NCBI RefSeq assembly: GCF_003334355.1
Contig: NZ_QOWP01000017.1
DNA length: 64,000 nucleotides
Direction: 5' to 3' (one strand)
DNA from: Escherichia coli
GTDB taxonomy: Bacteria > Pseudomonadota > Gammaproteobacteria > Enterobacterales > Enterobacteriaceae
A program made the translations under genes and the position numbers. Positions 1,326-54,980 of this stretch are shown piece by piece. Under the pieces are notes generated by a model. It ran no database searches. It was given only the letters and a program-made list of their open reading frames with translations, and was not told the origin of the DNA. Position 1 is the first letter of the stretch. The number at the start of each line of letters is the position of its first letter.

Positions 1326-1412
1326 TTGTAGGCAGGATAAGGCGTTTACGCCGCATCCGGCATTTGAGCAGGATGCCTGATGCGACGCTGATAGCGTCTT
1401 ATCAGGCCTACA
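1326..1412. repeat. REP/BIME pair (two inverted REP palindromes) in the cpxA-yiiM gap
   Basis: gtaggcaggataaggcgtttacgccgcatccggca followed by gatgcctgatgcgacgctgatagcgtcttatcaggcctac; canonical E. coli REP sequences. Confidence 0.8.
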
Positions 1413-10200: not shown

Positions 10201-10424
10201 GCCGGATGCGGCGCGAGCGCCTTATCCGGCCTACGGGTCGGCAACAGTTGTAGGCCTGATAAGACGCGACAGCGTCGCATCAGGCATTGATTGCCGGATG
10301 CGGCACAAGTGCCTTATCCGGCCTACAGGTCGGCAATAGTTGTAGGCCTGATAAGACGCGACAGCGTCGCATCAGGCATTGATTGCCGGATGCGGCGCGA
10401 GCGCCTTATCCGGCCTACGGGTCG
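10201..10424. repeat. BIME cluster: about 2.4 tandem copies of a 92-bp unit, each holding two inverted REP palindromes
   Basis: Unit gccggatgcggcgcgagcgccttatccggcctacgggtcggcaacagttgtaggcctgataagacgcgacagcgtcgcatcaggcattgatt begins at 10201, 10293 and 10385. Confidence 0.9.
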
Positions 10425-18911: not shown

Positions 18912-21900
18912 ATGCAGGTCAGCAGAAGGCAGTTCTTTAAGATCTGCGCTGGCGGTATGGCAGGCACCACGGCAGCGGCACTGGGTTTTGCACCCAGCGT
19001 AGCACTCGCGGAAACCCGGCAGTATAAACTGCTGCGCACCCGCGAAACCCGTAATACCTGCACCTATTGTTCCGTAGGCTGTGGGCTGTTGATGTACAGC
19101 CTCGGTGACGGAGCAAAAAACGCCAAAGCATCTATCTTCCATATCGAAGGCGATCCGGATCACCCGGTCAACCGCGGTGCACTTTGTCCGAAAGGCGCTG
19201 GCCTGGTGGATTTCATCCACTCCGAAAGCCGTCTGAAGTTTCCGGAATACCGTGCGCCAGGTTCTGATAAATGGCAGCAAATCAGTTGGGAAGAGGCGTT
19301 TGATCGCATCGCCAAACTGATGAAAGAAGACCGCGATGCTAACTACATTGCGCAAAACGCCGAAGGCGTGACTGTTAACCGCTGGCTCTCCACCGGGATG
19401 CTGTGTGCTTCCGCGTCGAGTAACGAAACCGGCTATTTAACGCAAAAATTCTCCCGCGCGCTGGGTATGCTCGCGGTCGACAACCAGGCGCGTGTCTGAC
19501 ACGGACCAACGGTAGCAAGTCTTGCTCCAACATTTGGTCGCGGTGCGATGACCAACCACTGGGTCGACATCAAGAACGCCAACCTCGTCGTGGTGATGGG
19601 CGGTAACGCCGCTGAAGCTCACCCGGTCGGGTTCCGCTGGGCGATGGAAGCCAAAATTCACAACGGCGCGAAGCTGATTGTGATCGATCCTCGCTTTACG
19701 CGTACGGCGGCGGTAGCTGACTACTATGCCCCTATTCGTTCCGGTACTGACATTGCTTTCCTGTCAGGCGTATTGCTGTACCTGCTGAACAATGAAAAAT
19801 TCAACCGCGAATACACCGAAGCCTATACCAACGCCAGCCTGATCGTGCGTGAGGATTACGGCTTTGAAGATGGCCTGTTCACCGGCTACGACGCGGAAAA
19901 ACGCAAGTACGATAAATCCTCCTGGACTTATGAACTGGACGAAAACGGCTTCGCCAAACGCGATACCACGCTGCAACATCCGCGCTGCGTGTGGAACTTG
20001 CTGAAACAGCACGTTTCCCGCTACACGCCAGATGTGGTTGAAAACATCTGTGGTACGCCAAAAGACGCGTTCCTGAAAGTCTGCGAATACATCGCAGAAA
20101 CCAGTGCTCACGATAAAACTGCCTCGTTCCTGTATGCCCTCGGCTGGACGCAACACTCCGTTGGTGCGCAAAACATTCGTACGATGGCGATGATCCAGCT
20201 GCTGCTCGGCAATATGGGGATGGCAGGCGGCGGCGTTAACGCCCTGCGCGGTCACTCCAATATTCAGGGGCTGACGGACCTGGGGCTGCTGTCGCAGAGC
20301 CTGCCAGGTTACATGACGCTGCCAAGCGAGAAGCAGACCGATCTGCAAACCTACCTTACCGCCAACACGCCAAAACCGCTGCTGGAAGGCCAGGTAAACT
20401 ACTGGGGCAACTACCCGAAATTCTTCGTCTCTATGATGAAGGCCTTCTTTGGTGATAAAGCGACGGCGGAAAATAGCTGGGGCTTTGACTGGTTGCCGAA
20501 GTGGGATAAAGGCTACGACGTCCTGCAATACTTCGAGATGATGAAAGAGGGCAAGGTCAATGGCTATATCTGCCAGGGCTTTAACCCTGTTGCCTCATTC
20601 CCGAACAAAAACAAAGTGATCGGTTGTCTGTCGAAACTGAAGTTCCTCGTCACCATCGACCCACTGAACACTGAAACCTCTAACTTCTGGCAGAACCACG
20701 GTGAGCTGAACGAAGTTGACTCGTCGAAGATCCAGACCGAAGTGTTCCGTCTGCCATCGACCTGCTTCGCGGAAGAGAACGGTTCTATCGTTAACTCAGG
20801 TCGCTGGTTACAGTGGCACTGGAAAGGTGCGGACGCCCCGGGGATTGCGCTGACTGACGGCGAGATCCTCTCCGGTATCTTCCTGCGCTTGCGCAAGATG
20901 TATGCCGAACAGGGTGGCGCGAACCCGGACCAGGTGCTGAACATGACATGGAACTACGCCATTCCGCATGAGCCATCTTCAGAAGAAGTGGCGATGGAGA
21001 GCAACGGTAAGGCGCTGGCCGATATTACCGATCCGGCAACCGGTGCGGTTATCGTCAAGAAAGGCCAACAACTTAGTTCGTTCGCCCAATTGCGCGATGA
21101 CGGTACAACCTCCTGTGGCTGCTGGATTTTCGCCGGTAGCTGGACGCCGGAAGGCAACCAGATGGCACGCCGTGATAACGCCGATCCGTCTGGCCTCGGT
21201 AACACGCTGGGCTGGGCATGGGCATGGCCGCTTAACCGCCGCATTCTGTATAACCGCGCCTCCGCAGATCCGCAGGGTAACCCGTGGGATCCGAAGCGTC
21301 AGTTGCTGAAATGGGACGGCACTAAGTGGACCGGCTGGGATATTCCGGACTACAGCGCAGCGCCTCCGGGTAGCGGCGTCGGGCCGTTTATCATGCAGCA
21401 GGAAGGCATGGGGCGTCTGTTTGCCCTCGATAAGATGGCGGAAGGTCCGTTCCCGGAACACTACGAGCCGTTTGAAACGCCGCTGGGAACTAACCCGCTG
21501 CATCCAAACGTTATCTCGAACCCGGCTGCACGTATCTTTAAAGACGACGCCGAAGCATTGGGTAAAGCCGATAAGTTCCCGTATGTCGGAACCACCTATC
21601 GTCTGACCGAGCACTTCCACTACTGGACCAAACACGCGCTGTTGAACGCGATTTTGCAGCCAGAGCAGTTTGTGGAAATCGGGGAGTCGCTGGCGAATAA
21701 ACTTGGCATTGCCCAGGGCGATACCGTGAAAGTCTCCTCCAACCGTGGCTATATCAAAGCCAAAGCGGTGGTGACCAAACGTATTCGCACGCTGAAAGCG
21801 AACGGCAAAGATATCGATACCATCGGTATTCCGATTCACTGGGGCTATGAAGGCGTAGCTAAAAAAGGCTTTATTGCCAATACTTTAACGCCATTCGTTG

Positions 21901-44286: not shown

Positions 44287-44452
44287 TGTTTAATCCTTTT
44301 GGTTTAAACCAGATGAAGCATCTTACGCTTACGCCAAAAAAGAAAGCAATTAACGGTGTATGACTTTGCAGATAATTGTGACAAAGCTCTCTATTGACGT
44401 AATCACAGACTTATAAGGGAGATACTCGCATTGGTGTGCGCTCACGACAGGT

Positions 44453-44485
44453 AAAAAAAAACCTGCCAGCGATGGCAGGTTTTTT
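44453..44485 (-). terminator. Rho-independent terminator of typA (symmetrical A/T tracts, possibly bidirectional)
   Basis: aaaaaaaaa cctgccagcgatggcagg tttttt. Confidence 0.7.
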
Positions 44486-44502
44486 ATAACTAAAAAACGA
44501 AA

Positions 44503-46326
44503 TTAATCGTCTTTCGGTGCGCGGTTAGCGCGACGACGATCGTTTTCCGTCAGGTGACGTTTACGAATACGGATAGAGGTTGGAGTCACTTCTACCAGTT
44601 CGTCATCATCGATGAACTCCAGAGCTTGTTCCAGAGTCATGCGGATAGGCGGAACCAGAACAACGGCTTCGTCAGTACCGGAAGCACGCATGTTGGTCAG
44701 TTTCTTACCGGTCAGGCAGTTTACCGTCAGGTCGTTAGAGCGGCTATGAATACCGATAATCTGACCTTCGTAAACTTCTGCACCGTGACCGAGGAACAGC
44801 TTACCGCGATCCTGCAGACCGAACAGCGCGAACGCGACCGCTTTACCCTGACCGTTAGAGATCAGTACGCCGTTCTGACGCTGGCCCACTTCACCCGGAC
44901 GTACGTCGTCGTAGTGGCTGAAGGTGGAGTACAGCAGACCAGTACCGGAAGTCATGGTCATGAACTCAGAACGGAAGCCAATCAGACCACGGCTTGGGAT
45001 CACGTAGTCGAGACGTACGCGGCCTTTACCGTCTGGATTCATGTTTTTCAGGTCGCCTTTACGTTCGCCCAGCGCCTGCATCACAGAACCCTGATGCTGT
45101 TCTTCAACGTCCAGCGTCACGTTTTCATACGGCTCTTGTTTACGACCGTCGATTTCACGGAAGATTACTTTCGGACGGGATACCGCCAGTTCGAAACCTT
45201 CACGACGCATGTTTTCGATCAGAACAGACAGGTGCAGTTCGCCACGACCAGAAACGCGGAACGCATCGGCGTCTTCGGTTTCTTCTACGCGCAGCGCAAC
45301 GTTGTGTACCAGTTCTTTGTTCAGACGATCCAGGATCTGACGAGACGTTACGAACTTACCTTCTTTACCGCAGAACGGCGAGGTGTTAACGCAGAAGAAC
45401 ATAGAAACGGTCGGCTCATCAACGGAGAGTGCCGGCAGCGCTTCAACGTTTTGCGTGTCGCAAACGGTGTCAGAAATGTTCAGTTCGCCCAGGCCCGTGA
45501 TCGCCACGATATCGCCAGCTTCCGCCAGGTCGGTTTCGATACGTTCCAGACCGAGGTGGCCCAGCACTTTACCGACTTTCGCGTTGCGGGTTTTGCCTTC
45601 GCTATCGATGATAGTGACCTGCTGGTTCGGCTTCACTTTACCGCGCTTGATGCGGCCAATGCCGATAACGCCAACATAGCTGTTGTAATCGAGCTGAGAA
45701 ATCTGCATCTGGAACGGACCGTCAAGGTCAACGTCCGGCGCAGGAACGTGGTCAACAATCGCCTGGTACAGCGGGGTCATGTCTTCCGCCATATCTTCGT
45801 GGTCCAGACCCGCGATACCGTTCAGCGCAGAAGCGTAAACGATCGGGAAGTCCAGCTGCTCGTCGGTCGCGTCGAGGTTAACGAACAGATCGAATACCTG
45901 ATCCACAACCCAATCAGGACGCGCGCCAGGGCGGTCAACTTTGTTGATAACAACAATCGGCTTCAGGCCGTAAGCAAACGCTTTTTTGGTTACGAAGCGC
46001 GTTTGCGGCATCGGGCCGTCAAATGCGTCAACCACCAGCAGCACTGAGTCTACCATGGACATTACACGTTCAACTTCACCACCGAAGTCGGCGTGCCCCG
46101 GGGTATCAACGATGTTGATACGGTAATCATTCCATTTGATAGCGGTGTTTTTCGCGAGGATGGTAATCCCACGCTCTTTCTCCAAATCGTTGGAGTCCAT
46201 CACGCGCTCTTGGGTTTCGGCACGAGAGTCGAACGTACCGGATTGTTGGAGCAGCTTGTCTACCAGGGTGGTTTTACCATGGTCTACGTGCGCGATGATG
46301 GCGATATTACGCAATTTTTCGATCAC
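44503..46326 (-). CDS. typA: Ribosome-associated translational GTPase TypA/BipA
   Basis: 607 aa; G-motifs [18 protein letters not shown]. Confidence 0.95.
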
Positions 46327-46469
46327 AACTTTGCCTCAGGCATTAGAAATAGCGCGTTATTGTACACGGATTAATCGCACTACAAAACAGGATCACAAAC
46401 ATCCTCCGCAAACAAGTATTGCAGAGTCCCTTTGTGATCGCTTTCACGGAGCATAAAAAGGGTTATCCA

Positions 46470-46620
46470 AAGGTCATTGCACCAACATGGTGCTTAATGT
46501 TTCCATTGAAGCACTATATTGGTGCAACATTCACATCGTGGTGCAGCCCTTTTGCACGATGGTGCGCATGATAACGCCTTTTAGGGGCAATTTAAAAGTT
46601 GGCACAGATTTCGCTTTATC
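46470..46620 (+). promoter_or_regulatory. glnA control region: NtrC binding sites and sigma-54 promoter glnAp2
   Basis: NtrC-type dyads ttgcaccaacatggtgct, ttggtgcaacattcacatcgtggtgcagcc, ttgcacgatggtgcgcat; sigma-54 -24/-12 element tggcacagatttcgct at 46600..46615. Confidence 0.85.
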
Positions 46621-46698
46621 TTTTTTACGGCGACACGGCCAAAATAATTGCAGATTTCGTTACCACGACGACCATGACCAATCCAGGAGAGTTAAAGT

Positions 46699-48108
46699 AT
46701 GTCCGCTGAACACGTACTGACGATGCTGAACGAGCACGAAGTGAAGTTTGTTGATTTGCGCTTCACCGATACTAAAGGTAAAGAACAGCACGTCACTATC
46801 CCTGCTCATCAGGTGAATGCTGAATTCTTCGAAGAAGGCAAAATGTTTGACGGCTCCTCGATTGGCGGCTGGAAAGGCATTAACGAGTCCGACATGGTGC
46901 TGATGCCAGACGCATCCACCGCAGTGATTGACCCGTTCTTCGCCGACTCCACCCTGATTATCCGTTGCGACATCCTTGAACCTGGCACCCTGCAAGGCTA
47001 TGACCGTGACCCGCGCTCCATTGCGAAGCGCGCCGAAGATTACCTGCGTTCCACTGGCATTGCCGACACCGTACTGTTCGGGCCAGAACCTGAATTCTTC
47101 CTGTTCGATGACATCCGTTTCGGATCATCTATCTCCGGTTCTCACGTTGCTATCGACGATATCGAAGGCGCATGGAACTCCTCCACCCAATATGAAGGTG
47201 GTAACAAAGGTCACCGTCCGGCAGTGAAAGGCGGTTACTTCCCGGTTCCGCCGGTAGACTCTGCTCAGGATATTCGTTCTGAAATGTGTCTGGTGATGGA
47301 ACAGATGGGCCTGGTGGTTGAAGCCCATCACCACGAAGTAGCGACTGCTGGTCAGAACGAAGTGGCTACCCGCTTCAATACCATGACCAAAAAAGCTGAC
47401 GAAATTCAGATCTACAAATATGTTGTGCACAACGTAGCGCACCGCTTCGGTAAAACCGCGACCTTTATGCCAAAACCGATGTTCGGTGATAACGGCTCCG
47501 GTATGCACTGCCACATGTCTCTGTCTAAAAACGGCGTTAACCTGTTCGCAGGCGACAAATACGCAGGTCTGTCTGAGCAGGCGCTGTACTACATTGGCGG
47601 CGTAATCAAACACGCTAAAGCGATTAACGCCCTGGCAAACCCGACCACCAACTCTTATAAGCGTCTGGTCCCGGGCTATGAAGCACCGGTAATGCTGGCT
47701 TACTCTGCGCGTAACCGTTCTGCGTCTATCCGTATTCCGGTGGTTTCTTCTCCGAAAGCACGTCGTATCGAAGTACGTTTCCCGGATCCGGCAGCTAACC
47801 CGTACCTGTGCTTTGCTGCCCTGCTGATGGCCGGTCTTGATGGTATCAAGAACAAGATCCATCCGGGCGAAGCCATGGACAAAAACCTGTATGACCTGCC
47901 GCCAGAAGAAGCGAAAGAGATCCCACAGGTTGCAGGCTCTCTGGAAGAAGCACTGAACGAACTGGATCTGGACCGCGAGTTCCTGAAAGCCGGTGGCGTG
48001 TTCACTGACGAAGCAATTGATGCGTACATCGCACTGCGTCGCGAAGAAGATGACCGCGTGCGTATGACTCCGCATCCGGTAGAGTTTGAGCTGTACTACA
48101 GCGTCTAA
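46699..48108 (+). CDS. glnA: Glutamine synthetase
   Basis: 469 aa [32 protein letters not shown]... Confidence 0.97.
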
Positions 48109-48306
48109 GTGTTTTAGTTGCCGTGGAAACTTTTCGCCTGTCTCTGGCAGGCCTGGGATCGGTGGCAAGCACATCACGCCGGATGCGACGCAAATGCGTC
48201 TTATCCGGCCTACACGGTGATGATGTGGTAGGCCGGAGCAGGTGAGTCGCTCTCCAACGTGAAGTTTGTCAGCTATCTGTAGCCCATCTCTGCATGGGCT
48301 TTTTTC
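48109..48306 (+). ncRNA. glnZ: glnA 3' UTR (candidate GlnZ-type 3'UTR-derived sRNA) with embedded REP and terminator
   Basis: REP gccggatgcgacgcaaatgcgtcttatccggcctac at 48178..48213; terminator agcccatctctgcatgggct plus T6 at 48281..48306; sRNA assignment by position only. Confidence 0.35.
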
Positions 48307-48393
48307 TCCGTCAATTCTCTGATGCTTCGCGCTTTTTATCCGTAAAAAGCTATAATGCACTAAAATGGTGCAACCTGTTCAGGAGACTGCTTT

Positions 48394-49443
48394 ATGGCAA
48401 CAGGCACGCAGCCCGATGCTGGGCAGATCCTCAACTCGCTGATTAACAGTATTTTGTTAATCGATGACAACCTGGCGATCCATTACGCCAACCCCGCCGC
48501 GCAACAACTGCTCGCCCAAAGCTCCCGCAAATTGTTTGGTACACCGTTACCGGAACTGTTGAGCTACTTCTCATTAAATATCGAGCTGATGCAAGAAAGT
48601 CTGGAGGCGGGGCAAGGTTTTACCGATAACGAAGTGACGCTGGTCATCGACGGGCGCTCGCATATCCTTTCTGTGACGGCCCAGCGTATGCCGGACGGCA
48701 TGATCCTGCTGGAGATGGCTCCGATGGATAACCAGCGCCGCTTAAGTCAGGAACAGCTACAGCACGCCCAGCAGGTTGCTGCCCGTGATTTAGTGCGCGG
48801 CCTGGCACATGAGATTAAAAATCCGCTTGGCGGTTTACGTGGCGCGGCGCAGCTGCTCAGCAAAGCGTTACCTGACCCATCACTACTCGAATATACCAAA
48901 GTGATTATCGAACAGGCGGACCGGCTGCGAAATCTGGTCGACCGTCTGTTGGGGCCGCAGCTGCCCGGTACGCGCGTTACCGAAAGTATTCACAAAGTGG
49001 CTGAACGCGTGGTAACGCTGGTGTCGATGGAACTGCCGGACAACGTGCGGTTGATTCGTGATTACGATCCCAGCCTGCCGGAACTGGCGCACGACCCGGA
49101 TCAAATTGAACAGGTCTTGCTGAATATTGTGCGCAATGCGCTACAGGCGCTGGGGCCGGAAGGCGGTGAAATCATTCTGCGTACCCGCACCGCGTTTCAA
49201 CTGACCTTACACGGCGAGCGCTACCGGCTGGCGGCGCGGATTGATGTGGAAGATAACGGGCCGGGCATTCCGCCTCATTTGCAGGATACGCTGTTTTACC
49301 CGATGGTCAGCGGCCGCGAAGGTGGCACCGGGCTTGGCTTATCCATCGCTCGTAATTTGATTGATCAGCATTCAGGCAAAATTGAATTTACCAGTTGGCC
49401 AGGGCATACCGAGTTCTCGGTTTACCTGCCTATCAGGAAATAA
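48394..49443 (+). CDS. glnL: Nitrogen-regulation sensor kinase NtrB
   Basis: 349 aa; H-box [11 protein letters not shown]. Confidence 0.95.
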
Positions 49444-51099: not shown

Positions 51100-51203
51100 T
51101 GCCGGATGCGGAGAAAGTCGTAGGCCTGATAAGACGCGACCAGCGCCGCATCAGGCACCATGCTCAGATGCCTGATGCGGCGTAAACGCCTTATCCGGCC
51201 TAC
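51100..51203. repeat. REP/BIME cluster (three REP palindromes) between yshB and hemN
   Basis: gccggatgcggagaaagtcgtaggcctgataagacgcgaccagcgccgcatcaggca...gatgcctgatgcggcgtaaacgccttatccggcctac. Confidence 0.8.
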
Positions 51204-53386: not shown

Positions 53387-53452
53387 AATGGTTCGTCTTT
53401 TAGCCGTTTTATTCAGTATAGATTTGCGGCGGAATCTAACAGAAAGCAAGCA

Positions 53453-53697
53453 AAGAAAAAAGGCGACAGATTACTCTGTCGCCTTTTTTCCTGACTCATA
53501 ACCCTTAACGGGTCTTACAATCCTTGCAGGCCGCCAACACACCCTGTTTTTCCTTTAGCCGGAACAATCCGTGTTGATTCCATTTCCGTTTAATTACGTC
53601 TCCGGACGTTTGTCTTCCTGACAATCCTCTGTCTTCGCCTCCTGGCGCTCCTGACCCTCATCCTGAGTCATTGTTCCTGTTAGCGTCCTCGCTCTAT
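53453..53697 (-). ncRNA. csrC: CsrC small RNA (CsrA-sequestering)
   Basis: Minus-strand sequence begins atagagcgaggacgctaacaggaacaatgactcaggatgagggtcaggagcgccaggaggcgaagacagaggattgtcaggaagac..., has multiple GGA motifs and ends in terminator ggcgacagagtaatctgtcgcc plus U-run; matches CsrC as I recall it. Confidence 0.9.
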
Positions 53698-54725: not shown

Positions 54726-54834
54726 TAAAAAACGCCCCAGTCATTACTGACTGGGGCGGCTAAAATATTCAGCCAAATCCGATTACGTGAAGTAAAAGGT
54801 CTGAAAGATAGAACATCTTACCTCTGTACCCTAC
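54726..54834 (-). ncRNA. spf: Spot 42 small RNA
   Basis: Minus strand reads gtagggtacagaggtaagatgttctatctttcagaccttttacttcacgtaatcggatttggctgaatattttagccgccccagtcagtaatgactggggcgtttttta, the 109-nt Spot 42 sequence as I recall it, including its terminator. Confidence 0.92.
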
Positions 54835-54980
54835 GCGACTAACTTTACTCTTTTTTGTTCAGTTCAGAAAGCACTTTTTGTAATTTTTTTTCAGTTGTTG
54901 CATAGGAATTTCTAATAGCCATCACAAAACGTGACAGCTTATGTTGCTTACTTACGAAAAAAGGCATGTTCAGGCGAATC

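Follow-up and report, generated by a model that had tools for sequence, protein, structure and literature searches.

The glnA 3′ UTR of an Escherichia coli contig carries the known small RNA GlnZ in its K-12-type form

Two papers published in 2022 describe GlnZ as a regulatory RNA that RNase E cuts from the NtrC-activated glnA mRNA in a reaction that needs Hfq, that accumulates under nitrogen limitation, and that represses sucA, glnP and aceE by base pairing (Miyakoshi et al., 2022, PMC9731577; Walling et al., 2022, 10.1101/2022.04.01.486790). The level of GlnZ rises quickly upon removal of ammonium; the RNA occurs in forms of 213, 194 (the major one), 174 and approximately 150 nt, and its 3′ end has been mapped by Term-seq (Walling et al., 2022). 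According to the published data, GlnZ is lost upon deletion of ntrC or of the glnA promoter PglnA, with the internal promoter being nearly inactive, and mutation of the RNase E sites that flank the glnA stop codon abolishes both the release of the RNA and the repression of SucA. Moreover, GlnZ174, which lacks the seed, does not repress SucA, and RNase E has been proposed to cleave in U-rich RNA before the first stem-loop (Walling et al., 2022). Pairing of GlnZ with glnP, sucA and aceE is proven by compensatory mutations (Miyakoshi et al., 2022; Walling et al., 2022).

The glnA 3′ UTR comes in three types in E. coli, namely 197 nt (K-12), 85 nt (O157) and 230 nt (O111) (Miyakoshi et al., 2022). 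The variant in which a REP (repetitive extragenic palindromic) insertion lies between seed and terminator was named 'K-12 type' by Miyakoshi et al. (2022) and 'Class III' by Walling et al. (2022), who also marked the REP inside GlnZ. GlnZ/EsrF of O157:H7 (Class I, 85-nt UTR) and GlnZ of O111/W (230-nt UTR) agree with the locus analyzed here in parental gene, seed (UUGCCGUGGAAA) and terminator, and the EHEC form is reported in the published work to repress the same targets. In these RNAs, a CCCGGCG...CGCCGGG hairpin (O157), to which a 145-nt insertion is added in O111/W, comes ahead of the seed, and the terminator follows the seed immediately, whereas in the K-12 form, and in ours, the seed directly follows the stop codon and approximately 150 nt of REP-containing sequence precede the terminator. 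GlnZ of Salmonella enterica (Class II, 185-nt UTR), as published, shares the seed core, ends in a similar terminator, is processed by RNase E and represses both sucA and glnP, but its seed lies beside the terminator after a long unrelated 5′ part; furthermore, it carries a G for U next to the seed and regulates deoD rather than aceE (Miyakoshi et al., 2022). Further parallels are other RNase E-processed 3′-UTR sRNAs, e.g., SdhX, from sdhCDAB-sucABCD, and SroC, which share the mode of biogenesis (a seed and a Rho-independent terminator at the mRNA end, release by RNase E, and Hfq) but differ from GlnZ in parental genes, seeds and regulons, without any sequence relationship.

The window analyzed here, a stretch of 64,000 nt of E. 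coli DNA (contig NZ_QOWP01000017.1), carries typA (bipA) on the minus strand, followed by glnA, glnL and glnG on the plus strand, with the glnA stop codon, TAA, at 48106-48108 (Table 1). In the MG1655 record NC_000913.3, an ncRNA annotated as "glnZ, b4836, small regulatory RNA GlnZ" occupies positions 4056428-4056621 between glnA and glnL, and the same glnA-glnZ-glnL layout is found in the window. A position-by-position comparison of 48112-48305 with this gene yields 100% identity (194/194 nt), and the two RNAs agree in position, strand, seed, REP insertion and terminator, with no difference at the RNA level. Across the 4 kb compared with MG1655, there are 14 substitutions, none of them inside glnZ, and an exact search of the window for the whole MG1655 4-kb locus gave no match; the source of the window is therefore an E. 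coli strain other than MG1655, with the K-12-type allele. All the features that define GlnZ at the sequence level, namely the locus, the seed, the terminator, the identity and the target complementarity, are present, and we consider it practically certain that the interval is GlnZ itself, of the K-12 type (Class III), a 3′-UTR-derived, Hfq-dependent regulatory sRNA. No feature of the sequence speaks against this reading.

An earlier note on this DNA had put the interval forward as a candidate GlnZ-like sRNA from the glnA 3′ UTR, which was right but understated, given that the 194/194 identity to b4836 makes it an annotated and characterized gene. The Northern blots and Hfq data that the note had named as checks have already been published on the identical sequence, with a prominent band of approximately 194 nt and minor ones of approximately 174 and 150 nt; so have the nitrogen regulation that it had invoked, in the form of induction by nitrogen starvation, and the dependence on Hfq and RNase E. 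Thus, the glnZ gene found here is real, ordinary and already known, having been published in 2022 and annotated in the reference genome, and nothing about it is new. Our own direct basis consists of sequence identity, anatomy, predicted fold and seed-target complementarity; for expression, processing, Hfq dependence and target repression we rely on published work with the identical sequence. Automated RefSeq (PGAP) annotation leaves glnZ unmarked in most E. coli genomes, for instance in the record of K-12 ER3413.

Table 1. Features of the glnA-glnZ-glnL locus, in coordinates of the window
Feature	Position	Strand	Basis
Pair of NtrC-type palindromes upstream of glnA	46478-46494, 46510-46526		Pattern search, 1 mismatch each
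Candidate sigma-54 type promoter, TGGCAC-N5-TCGCT	46600-46615	+	Read from sequence
glnA CDS, glutamine synthetase, 469 aa; parental mRNA of the sRNA	46699-48108	+	ORF list; annotated glnA in matching E. coli records
Full glnA 3′ UTR, 197 nt, 'K-12 type'	48109-48305	+	Computed length equals the 197 nt of the K-12 type in PMC9731577
GlnZ sRNA (glnZ, b4836), major 194-nt processed form	48112-48305	+	194/194 identity to MG1655 ncRNA; most prominent Northern band (Walling et al.)
Seed TTGCCGTGGAAA (UUGCCGUGGAAA)	48118-48129	+	Exact match to the conserved seed in PMC9731577
U-rich single-stranded CUUU	48132-48135	+	Predicted fold; 48132 is the inferred 5′ end of the seedless 174-nt form (48305-174+1)
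First stem-loop GCCTGTCTCTGGCAGGC, 7 pairs	48136-48152	+	MFE and centroid; consistent with the first stem-loop of Walling et al.
Long imperfect hairpin from the REP-containing insertion, parting seed from terminator	48156-48278	+	MFE; segment absent from the O157-type UTR
REP unit GCCGGATGCGACGCAAATGCGTCTTATCCGGCCTAC	48178-48213	+	Inverted repeat; REP pattern match with 0 mismatches
Partial inverted REP arm GTAGGCCGGA, pairs with 48204-48213	48228-48237	+	Inverted repeat, 10 nt, 100% complementary
Rho-independent terminator, expected Hfq-binding 3′ end	stem 48281-48300, T6 48301-48306	+	Terminator scan; same in three E. coli UTR types
glnL	48394-49443	+	ORF list

The terminator stem begins 172 nt after the stop codon of glnA, with the U-run ending at 197 nt, so that the distance of about 200 nt given in the earlier note was fair; its description of a structured UTR with a REP element and a terminator is likewise borne out by the terminator scan, the inverted repeats and the fold. 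The terminator hairpin that it had quoted together with T6 was recovered by the scan: the stem AGCCCATCTCTGCATGGGCT comprises 7 pairs, 4 of them G-C, with a 6-nt loop, and is directly followed by TTTTTT. Two terminator-like sites were detected in 47900-48500, compared with 0.4 expected from shuffled sequences, and this one is the only one on the plus strand. Counting back from the 3′ end at 48305, the 213-, 194- and 174-nt forms would have their 5′ ends at 48093, 48112 and 48132, respectively. As for the REP unit, we looked for an imperfect palindrome of approximately 35 nt that matches GCCGGATGCGRCG...CGYCTTATCCGGCCTAC, is extragenic and is present in multiple copies per genome, and the element in the UTR has all these properties. 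Its palindrome arms, detected by inverted-repeat search, are at 48178-48192 and 48195-48209, and the 36-nt REP consensus is matched there with 0 mismatches and in three further copies in the window (0.00 expected from 100 shuffles).

The RNA spanning 48112-48306 (195 nt) is predicted to fold at -81 kcal/mol, compared with -64.5 +/- 4.3 kcal/mol for dinucleotide shuffles (z = -3.83; none of 200 shuffles as good), and therefore contains structure beyond chance. The predicted arrangement, in which a U-rich strand is followed by the stem-loop at 48136-48152 and by the long closed hairpin at 48156-48278, agrees with the published RNase T1 and RNase III probing. In particular, RNase III probing in vitro showed the region of the REP insertion to be extensively double-stranded (Walling et al., 2022). 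The seed is predicted to be more accessible than the RNA as a whole, with a mean unpaired probability of 0.58 versus 0.38.

With respect to transcription, the TGGCAC-N5-TCGCT element upstream of glnA is presumably glnAp2, the driver of the glnA-GlnZ transcript. Furthermore, a perfect NtrC-type palindrome, TGCACTAAAATGGTGCA, is located at 48356-48372, in the stretch that separates the GlnZ terminator from the start of glnL, and is overlapped by a TATAAT-like box, CTATAATG, at 48349-48356; we take this combination to fit the NtrC-repressed glnL promoter.

Target pairing was analyzed with the sdhB-sucA and glnH-glnP intergenic regions of MG1655, the sucA, glnP and aceE leaders of the strain itself lying outside the window. 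For the core seed (48114-48131), the best duplex in the sucA leader covers positions -48 to -33 relative to the start codon (-20.1 kcal/mol) and includes 10 consecutive pairs, UUGCCGUGGA with UCCACGGCGA; in the glnP leader, the best duplex covers -22 to -11, just upstream of the Shine-Dalgarno sequence (-18.4 kcal/mol). These top sites, from a scan that was run without a shuffle control, agree with the published ones (Miyakoshi et al., 2022). When the first 29 nt of GlnZ were matched by RNAduplex against the full sucA and glnP leaders, the duplexes were not significant relative to shuffled seeds (fractions 0.068 and 0.114), and on the glnP leader this whole-region search chose a site other than the published one. 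Pairing of the seed with the published sucA and glnP leader sites is thus a prediction that the computation supports without proving it.

The region 48060-48340 was compared by megablast with 5,426 complete E. coli genomes, all of which matched at the glnA locus, several K-12 strains with 100% identity. The K-12-type UTR is present in approximately 1,571 of these genomes (about 29%), and the O157 and O111 types together in 3,852; with 993 genomes of the O111/W type, approximately 2,859 are left for the O157 type. These counts are in line with the published papers, and our O157-type and O111-type representatives measure exactly 85 and 230 nt, as published. When aligned, the three types are identical at the end of glnA, in the terminator and in all downstream sequence up to glnL; the alignment separates the seed of the window from those of O157 and O111, because it lies across the insertion, but UUGCCGUGGAAA occurs in the O157-type and O111-type UTRs as well. 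All three E. coli types thus retain seed and terminator and differ in the remainder.

Some minor observations concern the variation at this locus. About three of the 5,426 genomes are aberrant at the glnA 3′ UTR; in one of these, AMSHJX01 (NZ_CP030939.1), a truncated clsB pseudogene adjoins the GlnZ terminator and glnA is not beside glnL. In this 3-kb stretch, 4 of the 5 annotated genes are marked as frameshifted, which points either to a rearrangement or to a poor assembly. The insertion of approximately 145 nt in the O111/W GlnZ (positions 486-632 of our O111/W sequence, L004) has a second copy, about 86% identical and unannotated, in the hemE-nfi intergenic region of approximately 286 E. 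coli genomes (1501-1632 in L009 and 1501-1620 in L010), and resembles a low-copy intergenic repeat or a miniature mobile element.

Comparison of 46300-48500 with Rfam release 15 at a permissive E-value detected no GlnZ family and no match above threshold in the GlnZ interval. A subthreshold match to naRNA4 (RF02564, the REP325-derived nucleoid-associated RNA) at 48150-48210 scores 30.4 bits on the plus strand and 26.6 bits on the minus strand. We rejected membership in this family, given that the gathering score is 59.5 bits and that one REP hairpin is aligned where two are expected; true naRNA4 matches elsewhere in the window reach 74-79 bits. Among the Rfam families, RF02766 (Ysr49, Yersinia sRNA 49) has in the 3′ half of its consensus GCCGuGGAAACUUUU, followed by GCCCauCU..auGGGC and U5, which corresponds to the GlnZ seed and terminator. 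This model matches the O157-type UTR (positions 430-534 of our sequence L003) with 34.1 bits (E = 3.5e-5; gathering score 95) and has no match to the K-12-type UTR in the window, because the REP insertion splits the seed from the terminator. Judging by these consensus sequences, Ysr49 looks like the Yersinia orthologue of GlnZ under another name. Two papers in the searched literature contain Ysr49: one, on Yersinia ruckeri, makes no mention of GlnZ, and the other is, judging from its title, a psychiatry review on a different matter. That Rfam is without a model that detects the K-12-type GlnZ is a small point of curation. In addition, a preprint on the post-transcriptional control of glnA (10.1101/2023.01.17.524496) mentions neither GlnZ nor the intergenic region.

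REP hairpins are known mRNA stabilizers, and the predicted fold shows the glnA 3′ UTR to be strongly structured, both of which would suit a purely structural 3′ UTR in which the REP hairpin and the terminator shield the glnA mRNA against 3′ exonucleases and set the readthrough into glnLG, with no trans-acting RNA involved. Deletion of the terminator does slightly lower GlnA, which suggests stabilization of the glnA mRNA, but deletion of the UTR with the terminator kept, or a swap of UTR types, leaves the levels of GlnA and NtrC unchanged (Miyakoshi et al., 2022). Moreover, the parts of the UTR that are conserved are the seed and the terminator, not the REP, and a discrete sRNA is known from published work to accumulate and to repress its targets by pairing that compensatory mutations have proven. 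Hence, we consider the exclusively structural role, which the published work on target regulation already contradicts, extremely unlikely; stabilization by the 3′ UTR may occur alongside the sRNA without taking its place.

Given that a discrete RNA exists, the question is whether it is processed from the glnA mRNA or is mainly a primary transcript that starts at a separate promoter within the coding sequence of glnA, represented by the 213-nt form with a 5′ end near 48093. Differential RNA-seq does indicate an internal promoter that gives the 213-nt product, but the corresponding band is visible only on long exposure (Walling et al., 2022). In published experiments, a PglnZ-lacZ fusion has minimal activity, deletion of the glnA promoter abolishes GlnZ, pBAD-glnA gives no GlnZ unless arabinose is present, and RNase E is needed for processing; in 47900-48500 of the window, a consensus scan finds no sigma-70-type promoter, consistent with the weak internal promoter reported. 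An origin mainly from a promoter of its own is accordingly very unlikely. Least credible of all, with a probability close to nil, is that the interval encodes a small protein: a GTG-initiated ORF (48123-48245, 40 aa) and a TTG-initiated ORF (48086-48220, 44 aa) do exist mechanically in the ORF list, but they have non-ATG starts with no Shine-Dalgarno sequence seen on reading the DNA, they cross a REP element that about 71% of E. coli genomes lack, and no matching record has a gene annotated for either.

With GlnZ as the product of this interval, the published data and the anatomy of the locus suggest the following course of events. Under nitrogen limitation, NtrC and sigma-54 would activate glnAp2, and transcription would stop at the intrinsic terminator (48281-48306). 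RNase E would then cut around the glnA stop codon, yielding mainly the 194-nt RNA (48112-48305), whose 5′-proximal seed (48118-48129) would pair with the sucA, glnP and aceE leaders and repress these genes. Such repression would lower both the consumption of 2-oxoglutarate and the uptake of glutamine while glutamine synthetase is being made. The long REP hairpin, being closed, would keep the seed spatially close to the terminator and the Hfq site, and an extra cut at about 48132 would give rise to the seedless, inactive 174-nt form; RNase III, for its part, cleaves the REP-containing hairpin. GlnZ thus ties nitrogen assimilation to carbon flux, in that the mRNA of glutamine synthetase also gives rise to an RNA that reduces both 2-oxoglutarate dehydrogenase (SucA) and GlnP, the transporter of glutamine.

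A more tentative and, in our estimation, unlikely extension is that the REP hairpin (48156-48278), which the K-12 type alone among the GlnZ forms carries, does not just serve as neutral spacing but adds a property of its own, such as decay or target cleavage guided by RNase III, or binding of a protein that recognizes REP, e.g., HU. Published work leaves the effects of RNase III and of glutamine on GlnZ levels unsettled (Walling et al., 2022). If such a property exists, the tuning of the nitrogen/carbon switch would differ between O157-type strains and the approximately 29% of E. coli genomes that carry the K-12-type allele.

Several other features of the window were observed in the course of this analysis. 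An ORF of 411 aa (47125-48360, minus strand), antisense to most of glnA and to the whole 3′ UTR, is unannotated in matching records and most likely represents the shadow of a gene with codon bias. A full-length match to the ES222 sRNA of Rfam (46408-46515, minus strand; 135 bits versus a gathering score of 62) is situated between typA and glnA, in the orientation of typA and upstream of its start (46326). It overlaps both NtrC-type palindromes of the glnA control region (46478-46494, 46510-46526), and could represent a piece of the typA leader instead of an independent sRNA. Similarly, a match to STnc370 (44450-44518, minus strand; 54.9 bits versus a threshold of 54) straddles the stop codon and 3′ end of typA, and could be another 3′-UTR-derived RNA. 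Rfam further detects above threshold CsrC, Spot 42, one SECIS element and, of the REP-derived naRNA4 type, four elements in the window, for which the listed coordinates are 53444-53697 (-), 54726-54844 (-), 19494-19552 (+), 1331-1408 (+), 10253-10415 (-) and 51123-51200 (-).
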